Assembly (NCBI GenBank): GCA_043804895.1 | Contig: JAZDIN010000035.1 | Location: 1 to 42,592, forward strand | Direction of reading: 5' to 3' | Source of the DNA: Candidatus Altiarchaeota archaeon | Lineage (GTDB): Archaea > Altiarchaeota > Altiarchaeia > IMC4 > SCGC-AAA252-I15 | DNA length: 42,592 bases | Position numbers and translations under genes: made by a program | The notes under the pieces: model-generated | The model's input: the letters and a program-made list of their open reading frames with translations, nothing else | The model's database searches: none | Told to the model about the DNA's origin: nothing | Part shown: one piece after another, positions 39,807 to 39,998 of the stretch | Layout of the letters: each line of letters opens with the position of its first letter | How positions within the stretch are numbered: the first letter of the stretch is position 1

Positions 39807-39827
39807 TTTAAGCGATTATTAATCTTT

Positions 39828-39907
39828 GCGGTTGTTTGGAAAAAAACAGCAACAACCTGCTTCATCTTCCGATTATTTGTAGGGTGGTGTGTGGAGCTTA
39901 AGCTCCA
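39828..39907 (-). promoter_or_regulatory. Candidate attenuator region: palindrome over the leader stop, T7 tract and alternative hairpins
   Basis: Perfect 16-bp palindrome TGGAGCTTAAGCTCCA (39892-39907). The minus strand reads AGCAGGTTGTTGCTGTTTTTTTCCAAACAACCGC. Confidence 0.5.
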
Positions 39908-39963
39908 ATAATCAGAACTATAATGCCAAACAAGGCCAGTGAACCGGCACCAAACATCCTCAT
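39898..39963 (-). CDS. Putative Ile/Leu/Val-rich leader peptide of the cimA-leuC-leuD operon
   Basis: MRMFGAGSLALFGIIVLIIGA*. A TATTTAAA box lies about 25 nt upstream of the ATG. Confidence 0.65.
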   Translation of the reverse strand: MRMFGAGSLALFGIIVLIIGA

Positions 39964-39998
39964 ATAAGGAACAAATAGGAAGTGCCGGTTTAAATACG

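Follow-up and report, generated by a model that had tools for sequence, protein, structure and literature searches.

Control of biosynthetic genes by leader peptides that sense amino acid supply is textbook knowledge in bacteria. The transcription attenuators of the enterobacteria (trpL, hisL, thrL, leuL, and ilvL) are built on the classical 1:2 geometry, and in the Rho-dependent antitermination of Escherichia coli tnaC a ribosome parked at the end of the leader prevents factor-dependent termination. The polycysteine short-ORF attenuators of mycobacteria consist of a leaderless first uORF with a run of cognate codons, on which stalling blocks an RNA structure, and several loci follow this one logic, with a hidden downstream ribosome-binding site as the output (bioRxiv 10.1101/834739). 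In actinobacteria, cognate-codon leaders from which some attenuator parts are missing have been described, namely the LEU element of leuA, a pseudoknot pairing Leu codons with the Shine-Dalgarno (SD) sequence, and terminator-less cys leaders, for which factor-dependent termination was proposed; in Streptomyces, mutation of similar-looking leaders of ilvB and leuA gave results out of keeping with classical attenuation (PMC1262725).

In archaea, the place of Rho in termination is taken by FttA/aCPSF1 (PMC13681488). A hairpin is not always needed for termination at archaeal U-tracts (PMC13675443), FttA shows a preference for U-rich RNA at a distance of 30-36 nt from the 3′ end (PMC11616081), and aCPSF1 accumulates near promoters in Saccharolobus (PMC8448881). 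Exclusion of FttA by a coupled ribosome is a hypothesis of the authors (PMC11616081), and leader-peptide gating is not among the features that the passages on these terminators describe (PMC11616081, PMC13675443, PMC8448881). Within the full-text literature, we found no archaeal amino acid attenuator or leader peptide of a biosynthetic gene; subscription papers and the older work on the archaeal trp operon were beyond reach, and a prior report is possible. One paper mentions attenuation only as a bacterial precedent (PMC8576121), Haloferax 5′-UTR ORFs have been called reminiscent of bacterial and eukaryotic leader peptides (PMC10117724), and uORF candidates of Methanosarcina mazei are given without a mechanism (PMC11456600), the searched part of the accompanying Ribo-seq supplements making no mention of attenuation or citramalate. 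A single general sentence in the portion of PMC10219788 concerned holds, without an example, that uORFs regulate in archaea too.

The locus described here lies on a contig of a Candidatus Altiarchaeota archaeon, the whole stretch of 42,592 nucleotides being called the window below, and precedes a gene for an inferred citramalate synthase, cimA (38328-39806, minus strand; 492 aa), the enzyme with which isoleucine synthesis would begin. Comparison across relatives makes it very likely that the region upstream of this gene is a cis-acting isoleucine sensor, read by a translating ribosome at the 5′ end of the cimA transcript, and that being so, these archaea very probably gauge amino acid supply with the ribosome. 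Judged from its sequence, the element works like a bacterial leader-peptide attenuator and departs from that class in its antiterminator and hairpin terminator. With the enterobacterial attenuators it shares a short uORF, cognate codons near the end of that uORF, a stop codon tied to a hairpin, a U-tract before the first biosynthetic gene, and pathway-matched leaders before paralogous enzymes. It differs in its archaeal host, its TATA promoter, a uORF that is leaderless or nearly so, and an Ile-only leader on citramalate synthase, and also in having no conserved antiterminator, no conserved GC hairpin before the U-run, and no Rfam match. In contrast to the mycobacterial elements, no conserved pairing that would hide a ribosome-binding site is found here, and U-runs point to termination, while a pseudoknot of the LEU type was not seen. 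The C-rich, G-poor tract after the stop and the proposed parking of a ribosome at the leader end recall tnaC; TnaC, however, is induced by an excess of its amino acid through the nascent peptide, whereas here the peptide is variable and stalling would be expected on shortage. The archaeal FttA/aCPSF1 U-rich terminators are alike in their hairpin-independent U-tract signal; promoter-proximal recruitment of aCPSF1 has been reported elsewhere, and the factor is encoded here.

In the window, the leader uORF is an open frame of 21 codons (39963-39898, minus strand). Its place, its 4 Ile, 3 Leu, and 1 Val codons, and a run encoding IIVLII close to the stop had been described correctly in an earlier note on this DNA; the run lies at 39924-39907, separated from the stop by one Gly and one Ala codon. 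An ATG-initiated frame of 12-26 codons ending at the same hairpin occurs in 14 genomes of the window's family and on two metagenome contigs, always with a C-terminus resembling Ile-(Ile/Thr)-Ile-x-x-stop. Of the Ile codons, the two nearest the stop (-4 and -3) are the best conserved: Ile stands at -3 in 14/14 leaders and at -4 in 13/14, these being the positions by which the leaders were found, and at -5 in 8/14 and -8 in 9/14. With the search codons excluded, codons -12 to -5 of the 14 leaders comprise 33 Ile, 17 Leu, and 6 Val among 111, against a genome background of 6.4% Ile, 9.7% Leu, and 7.8% Val. The codon bias is therefore Ile specific, and of the Ile/Leu/Val-rich leader proposed in the earlier note the isoleucine part stands while the leucine and valine parts do not, Val showing no enrichment. 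All three kinds of Ile codon are in use, as expected of a translated frame, and we infer from this conservation that the uORF is translated. The N-terminal part of the peptide is unalignable. With 19 uncharged residues and a 17-residue hydropathy of 2.51 at best, the window copy is hydrophobic, but a value of at least 2.0 is reached by only 5/14 homologues, one homologue of 12 residues carrying Glu near its end and another two Asp within the Ile cluster, so hydrophobicity is not conserved. Ile accounts for 68% of the Ile/Leu/Val/Phe/Met residues in the leaders compared with 21% genome-wide. What is kept is thus isoleucine rather than hydrophobicity in general.

The stop codon sits at the centre of a perfect 16-bp palindrome (39892-39907, minus strand), as the earlier note had it, so that the stop falls in the loop of a hairpin whose 5′ arm is made up of the third base of the last Ile codon together with the two codons before the stop. 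A hairpin of 4-7 bp with the stop in its loop can form in all 14 leaders, opens in each (14/14) on the third base of the last Ile codon or directly 3′ of it, and is better than a shuffled-flank null at p<0.05 in 13/14. In an alignment of 15 sequences, 96.7% of cells are paired, three of six pairs change on both sides, and seven cells carry changes on both sides, with a covariation score reached by none of 500 shuffles; in the eight gap-free sequences, 93.8% are paired and the score was reached by 12 of 500 shuffles, the 15-sequence alignment having been fitted to the model and relatedness inflating both pair counts. Where the stem changes, the last two residues of the leader become Gly-Leu, Gly-Thr, or Glu-Gly, which shows that they serve the RNA and not the peptide. 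A covarying hairpin overlapping the end of the uORF is what an attenuator has; the geometry of its melting can be derived from ribosome footprint lengths (PMC7261190).

The best 30 loci fetched from 41 genomes were compared, 19 from the window's family and 11 from other Altiarchaeales families. The uORF, its Ile cluster, and the stop hairpin are found ~35-120 nt before cimA in 14 of the 19 family loci and in none of the 11 others (two of which had only 118 and 233 nt upstream), counts that overstate independence because the genomes are kin. In the relatives' cimA upstream regions, whose comparison the earlier note had proposed, the Ile cluster is thus kept in an otherwise variable peptide. Two more family genomes stand outside the count, the gene being cut at a contig edge in one and not found in the other. 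Four of the five family genomes without the Ile leader (L010, L013, L023, L024, and L027) belong to one genus and one to another. In the CimA tree, 13 of the 14 leader-bearing proteins form one clade (support 96/97), and the fourteenth groups with genomes without the leader, which suggests loss in those genomes.

Scanning metagenomes with a motif blind to cimA gave nine matches. In two of them, TATA box, Ile-rich uORF, C-rich tract, and U-run are all present and cimA follows directly (83% and 89% identity). No cimA lies near the remaining seven; in three of these the motif closes an ATG frame (two of the three being an identical stretch), and these were judged to be chance matches. A covariance model run over 61 genomes of the phylum gave one match per genome in 13 genomes, each before cimA, although 13/15 matches are training sequences and a known member with a 12-codon leader (L016) was missed. 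Two weak extra matches (E 0.39 and 0.43) do not lie before cimA and were set aside. Homologous peptides away from cimA, which by the earlier note's own criterion would have spoken against a leader, did not turn up in the metagenome scan or with the RNA model over the 61 genomes; the conserved leader is tied to cimA. A pattern search of the source genome with two mismatches yielded 8 matches against 14 for a reversed control and so showed no second copy. Among 80 named archaeal cimA/leuA loci, 77, mostly outside the Altiarchaeota, have no Ile uORF with a stop hairpin, one has no upstream DNA, and two Altiarchaeota records have the leader, which were left out of the counts because they may repeat members already counted.

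By motif, the uORF has a promoter of its own. An archaeal TATA box (39989-39996, minus strand; 7.3 bits) lies 33 nt before its ATG, scored with a matrix that was learned from 579 upstream regions of this genome and has its genome-wide peak 28-34 nt before the ATG. In 14/16 Ile leaders, a TATA box of at least 6 bits stands at -32 to -38 relative to the uORF start codon, and the same search window scores in 16/18 Leu leaders (see below), compared with only 3/16 before cimA starts and a background of 13%. The spacing from TATA box to ATG matches or slightly exceeds the genome-wide peak, which predicts a 5′ UTR of 0-8 nt; on this motif evidence, the uORF would be leaderless or nearly so and stand at the very start of the transcript, a first, leaderless, cognate-codon uORF of the mycobacterial type. 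The uORF and cimA accordingly share one promoter by motif, as in an attenuator, and a separate cimA promoter, which the earlier note had named as evidence against a leader, is not where the strong TATA box lies: that box belongs to the uORF. The U-runs do begin ~36-45 nt before the cimA ATG, near a TATA position, and 3/16 loci score at least 6 bits there. The T-run of the window has no A of the kind favoured by the TATA matrix and scores 5.5 bits compared with 7.3. A second promoter, for cimA itself, is unlikely. The 9-bp inverted repeat which the earlier note saw as linking promoter and leader (arms 39990-39982 and 39950-39942, minus strand) is present, but it was rejected as part of the element, the other 13 leaders holding no counterpart longer than 6 nt. 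Its first arm falls between the TATA box and the start codon and is thus probably not transcribed.

A TATA-filtered scan of the genome revealed a matched leader, a 33-codon uORF with a Leu run (L031:5494-5595, G000:C4; counterparts L120-L138 and L250), before the leuA paralog. In a genome-wide ranking by codon bias alone, neither the Ile nor the Leu leader is among the top 45. The Leu leader is found in 16/16 family loci with upstream DNA (one divergent; a further locus had 11 nt only) and, outside the family, in three of four loci plus one more, and in 0/12 loci of family f5 with upstream DNA. The Leu leaders have 24-43 codons and occur in four families of the order, a wider range than that of the Ile leader. 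Codons -12 to -3 include 119 Leu and 7 Ile among 180 in the Leu leaders and 60 Ile and 17 Leu among 139 in the Ile leaders, the former count covering 18 leaders and leaving out one with a TGA stop that the pattern missed. The matched Leu leader before leuA serves as a reciprocal control for reading the cimA element as an Ile sensor. At the leuA loci of three genomes without the Ile leader (L122, L126, and L130) the Leu leader is kept, and the two leaders would thus have been lost independently.

The stop hairpin of the Leu leaders begins at the last Leu codon, contains the stop, and is longer than that of the Ile leaders, with 12 pairs of which 6 change on both sides (15 sequences); a ribosome stalled at most of the Leu codons would stand too far upstream to melt it. 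A second helix in the coding part appeared in several single folds, was absent from the consensus, did not stand out against shuffles (mean z 0.15), and was discarded. Conservation is peptide-like: a Gly/Trp-Asn-Pro motif is kept, as are Arg residues towards the end, and one Arg is encoded by AGG, AGA, or CGG. No such leader precedes ilvB in the family (21 loci, one without and three with little upstream DNA), nor was a matched leader seen at 52 trpE-like and hisG loci over a range of 1.5 kb. In most family genomes ilvB and a conserved gene of ~370-400 aa diverge from one very short promoter region (L140-L160). Elsewhere in the window, a Phe/Tyr-rich uORF of 25 codons (22915-22992, plus strand) begins 33 nt after a TATA-like box and precedes a gene for a bacterial-type DAHP synthase, which only 2/21 family genomes encode; in the other one the gene lies inside an operon.

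Between the uORF stop and cimA, the stop hairpin is followed by a G-poor, C-rich tract (39871-39891, minus strand) that is mostly unpaired in folds. Over the 14 leaders, the 20 nt 3′ of the hairpin contain 26 G and 90 C among 280, compared with 152 G and 168 C among 916 in the remaining spacer. Further downstream lies a U7 tract (39840-39846, minus strand), a candidate archaeal termination signal that ends 33 nt before the cimA ATG. U-runs of at least 5 occur in 12/14 spacers versus 83/481 background upstream regions (14/16 with the metagenome members counted in), and runs of at least 6 in 10/14 versus 25/481; the two Ile leaders without a 5-U run are L005, whose spacer is only ~35 nt, and L015. 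The end of the run falls 29-38 nt before the cimA ATG in 12/14; measured from the uORF stop, the run lies at anything between 36 and 78 nt. A short stem before the T7 tract and a 7-bp stem able to enclose it (39830-39857, arms 39857-39851 and 39836-39830, minus strand), both reported in the earlier note along with the tract itself, are where it placed them. The sequence of the enclosing stem is not conserved, and the stem is suggestive only: the U-tract is not enclosed in the window's own spacer fold, and the longest U-run is enclosed by at least 4 pairs in 8/14 spacer folds versus 4.4 expected from shuffles. The short stem (z = -0.58) was not called as a terminator, the fold of the whole 167-nt leader (z = -1.42) is not more stable than chance, and an Rfam search of window positions 38000-40300 gave one match, to a microRNA model outside the leader (18 bits versus a gathering score of 70). 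Since the leader is not unusually stable, the T7 stem is weak, and Rfam holds no match, the case rests on comparison. An 11-bp pairing of Ile codons with the spacer in the window (z -3.2) is not general, a neighbouring window being significant in only 4/16 loci, and stop read-through into cimA was discarded because the distance from stop to start is not a constant frame.

These features suggest a mechanism in which the ribosome itself would decide whether cimA is transcribed. Haloferax ribosomes protect 27 nt, 15-16 nt of it from the P-site codon onward (PMC7261190). With such a footprint, a ribosome with codon -3 or -4 in its A site would cover the 5′ arm of the hairpin and one with codon -5 there about half of it, so that a ribosome waiting for Ile-tRNA at codons -5 to -3, the best-conserved Ile positions, would cover all or part of this arm and stay on the nascent RNA. 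With charged Ile-tRNA, the ribosome would finish the last codons and leave, and the hairpin would form on naked RNA. Transcription in Ile-replete cells would then end at the U-run, whether intrinsically or through FttA/aCPSF1, with the cimA start not yet available. When Ile is scarce, the parked ribosome would hold the hairpin open and block termination, and cimA would be transcribed. No antiterminator helix would be required, nor a classical 2:3 switch. The hairpin may make the polymerase pause until the ribosome has caught up, or it may contribute to the termination signal itself. In bacteria, pauses last longer when a duplex lies 11-12 nt from the RNA end (PMC12288461); the stop hairpin would suit such a role, for which the known precedent is bacterial and not archaeal. 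With the U-run at this distance from the ATG, a polymerase undergoing termination would stand at the cimA start, and the binding site of cimA would not yet have emerged.

Premature termination is probably the output of the element. A role for FttA as the termination factor is more tentative, though the genome encodes it (TIGR03675, over the cut-off) and U-runs are enriched in the spacers. Just as tentatively, the element may represent a separate, archaeal class of attenuator, in which access of FttA/aCPSF1 would be controlled by a leaderless cognate-codon uORF whose stop lies under a hairpin. A ribosome starved at the control codons and linked to the polymerase through Spt5 would exclude the nuclease until the polymerase has passed the U-tract, which lies ahead of the following start codon by one FttA footprint (30-36 nt). 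A 5-U run is found in only 3/18 Leu leaders, and for this reason the U-run cannot be an output shared by both leader families.

The strongest alternative, though an unlikely one, keeps the same Ile-codon sensor and moves its output to cimA translation initiation or mRNA stability. Room for it is left by the two Ile leaders and most Leu leaders without a 5-U run and by Leu runs too far upstream. Many Leu leaders have clear Shine-Dalgarno-like motifs, the 3′ arm of the Ile-leader hairpin is anti-SD-like and, when freed, pairs with the SD region in L002 and L008, and the mycobacterial leaderless polycysteine uORFs offer a precedent (bioRxiv 10.1101/834739). Against this, neither the freed arm nor the Ile codons pair with the spacer more strongly than with shuffled versions of it, a conserved pairing with the SD region was not found, and where such pairing occurs it has the wrong sign, as stalling would hide the SD. 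Moreover, the window has no clear SD before cimA, and the enrichment of U-runs would go unexplained.

If the proposed competition of ribosome and nuclease is right, it would amount to amino acid sensing without an antiterminator, and would show directly, by function, that archaea couple transcription and translation in a regulated way. The 160-nt element, with matched Ile and Leu versions, would be a compact test system that could be moved to a tractable archaeon or a reconstituted system.

A complete classical attenuator, with 1:2, 2:3, and 3:4 pairings, an intrinsic hairpin terminator, and a competing antiterminator, is improbable, although the control codons, stop position, and hairpin do fit the 1:2 geometry and two loci (L006 and L011) have a strong hairpin directly before the U-run, L011 with a competing pairing as well (z -2.15). 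The terminator/antiterminator pair that the earlier note had envisaged is not conserved: pairing of leader with spacer has a mean z of 0.01, and of -0.54 to +0.23 over ten windows, and a significant hairpin (z below -1.65) stands just before the U-run in only 3/14 loci. In constrained folds, computed for part of the loci, the spacer structure is mostly the same whether the stop hairpin is formed or open.

It is similarly improbable that the leader encodes a TnaC-like arrest peptide, a nascent chain that would sense free isoleucine in the exit tunnel and stall at the stop. The nearly invariant C-terminal Ile-Ile-Gly of the 14 Ile leaders and the peptide-like conservation of the Leu leaders, including Arg, would suit it, but no peptide conserved independently of the RNA structure was found: the length ranges from 12 to 26 residues, the N-terminal part cannot be aligned, the last two residues follow the hairpin, and matched codon runs before two biosynthetic genes fit control by tRNA charging. 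The tiny membrane peptide that the earlier note offered as its alternative, cotranscribed with cimA or unrelated to it, with a cimA promoter at the T-run, draws on the hydrophobic window copy and on T-runs near TATA distance from the cimA ATG and is very unlikely in view of the unconserved hydropathy, the Ile share of the residues, the low TATA score of the T-run, the single copy per genome always before cimA that the RNA model found, and the Leu counterpart before leuA, which would be a coincidence.

The inferred CimA of the window falls in the NCBIfam archaeal subfamily of isopropylmalate synthase (IPMS), CimA, and HCS, and its closest named relatives are from Ca. Altiarchaeota/Altiarchaeales (~80% identity). 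The genome has two full-length paralogs, 46% identical. Among 120 listed homologues, all 16 JGI names are citramalate synthase, while NCBI names 19 as IPMS and 2 as CimA. The window protein has Phe where the leuA paralog and Neisseria IPMS (3rmj) have His, a residue that presumably helps bind the IPMS substrate. The window CimA and the paralog form separate clades in a tree with no characterised archaeal CimA, and the paralog scores above the window protein on bacterial LeuA models. From annotation names, one active-site position, and the tree, the window gene is likely cimA and the C4 gene leuA; the matched leaders may in turn help to distinguish these two enzymes in a lineage whose annotations are mixed.

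Downstream of cimA are genes for a leuC-type dehydratase large subunit (36925-38178, minus strand) and, by family match, a leuD-type small subunit (35881-36384, minus strand), and leuC lies within ~1.5 kb after cimA in 8/14 leader loci, two more having no downstream DNA. The cimA-leuC gap of the window (38181-38325, minus strand) holds two long hairpins and, ~33 nt before leuC, a TATA-like box; its length is ~150 nt, compared with a few dozen bases or less in several relatives, and is possibly an insertion that gives leuC its own promoter. Given these hairpins and this box, a single cimA-leuCD transcript is no more than putative, so that of the citramalate (isoleucine) operon in the earlier note, it is the tie of the leader to cimA that holds. 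Between leuC and leuD, overlapping both, is a gene for an isochorismatase-family hydrolase (36368-36928, minus strand). Two closely similar bacterial-type leuB genes stand in tandem (25943-28186, minus strand), both over the TIGR00169 cut-off, and an inverted repeat at 28180-28270 lies upstream of the pair, with no leader peptide evident by eye. For trpE, the 89%-complete genome gave no match at E<=1e-60, while 19/20 family relatives have one. Very large ORFs lie beyond leuD (30283-35892, plus strand; 1869 aa) and beyond leuA (L031:7299-11942, minus strand; 1547 aa).
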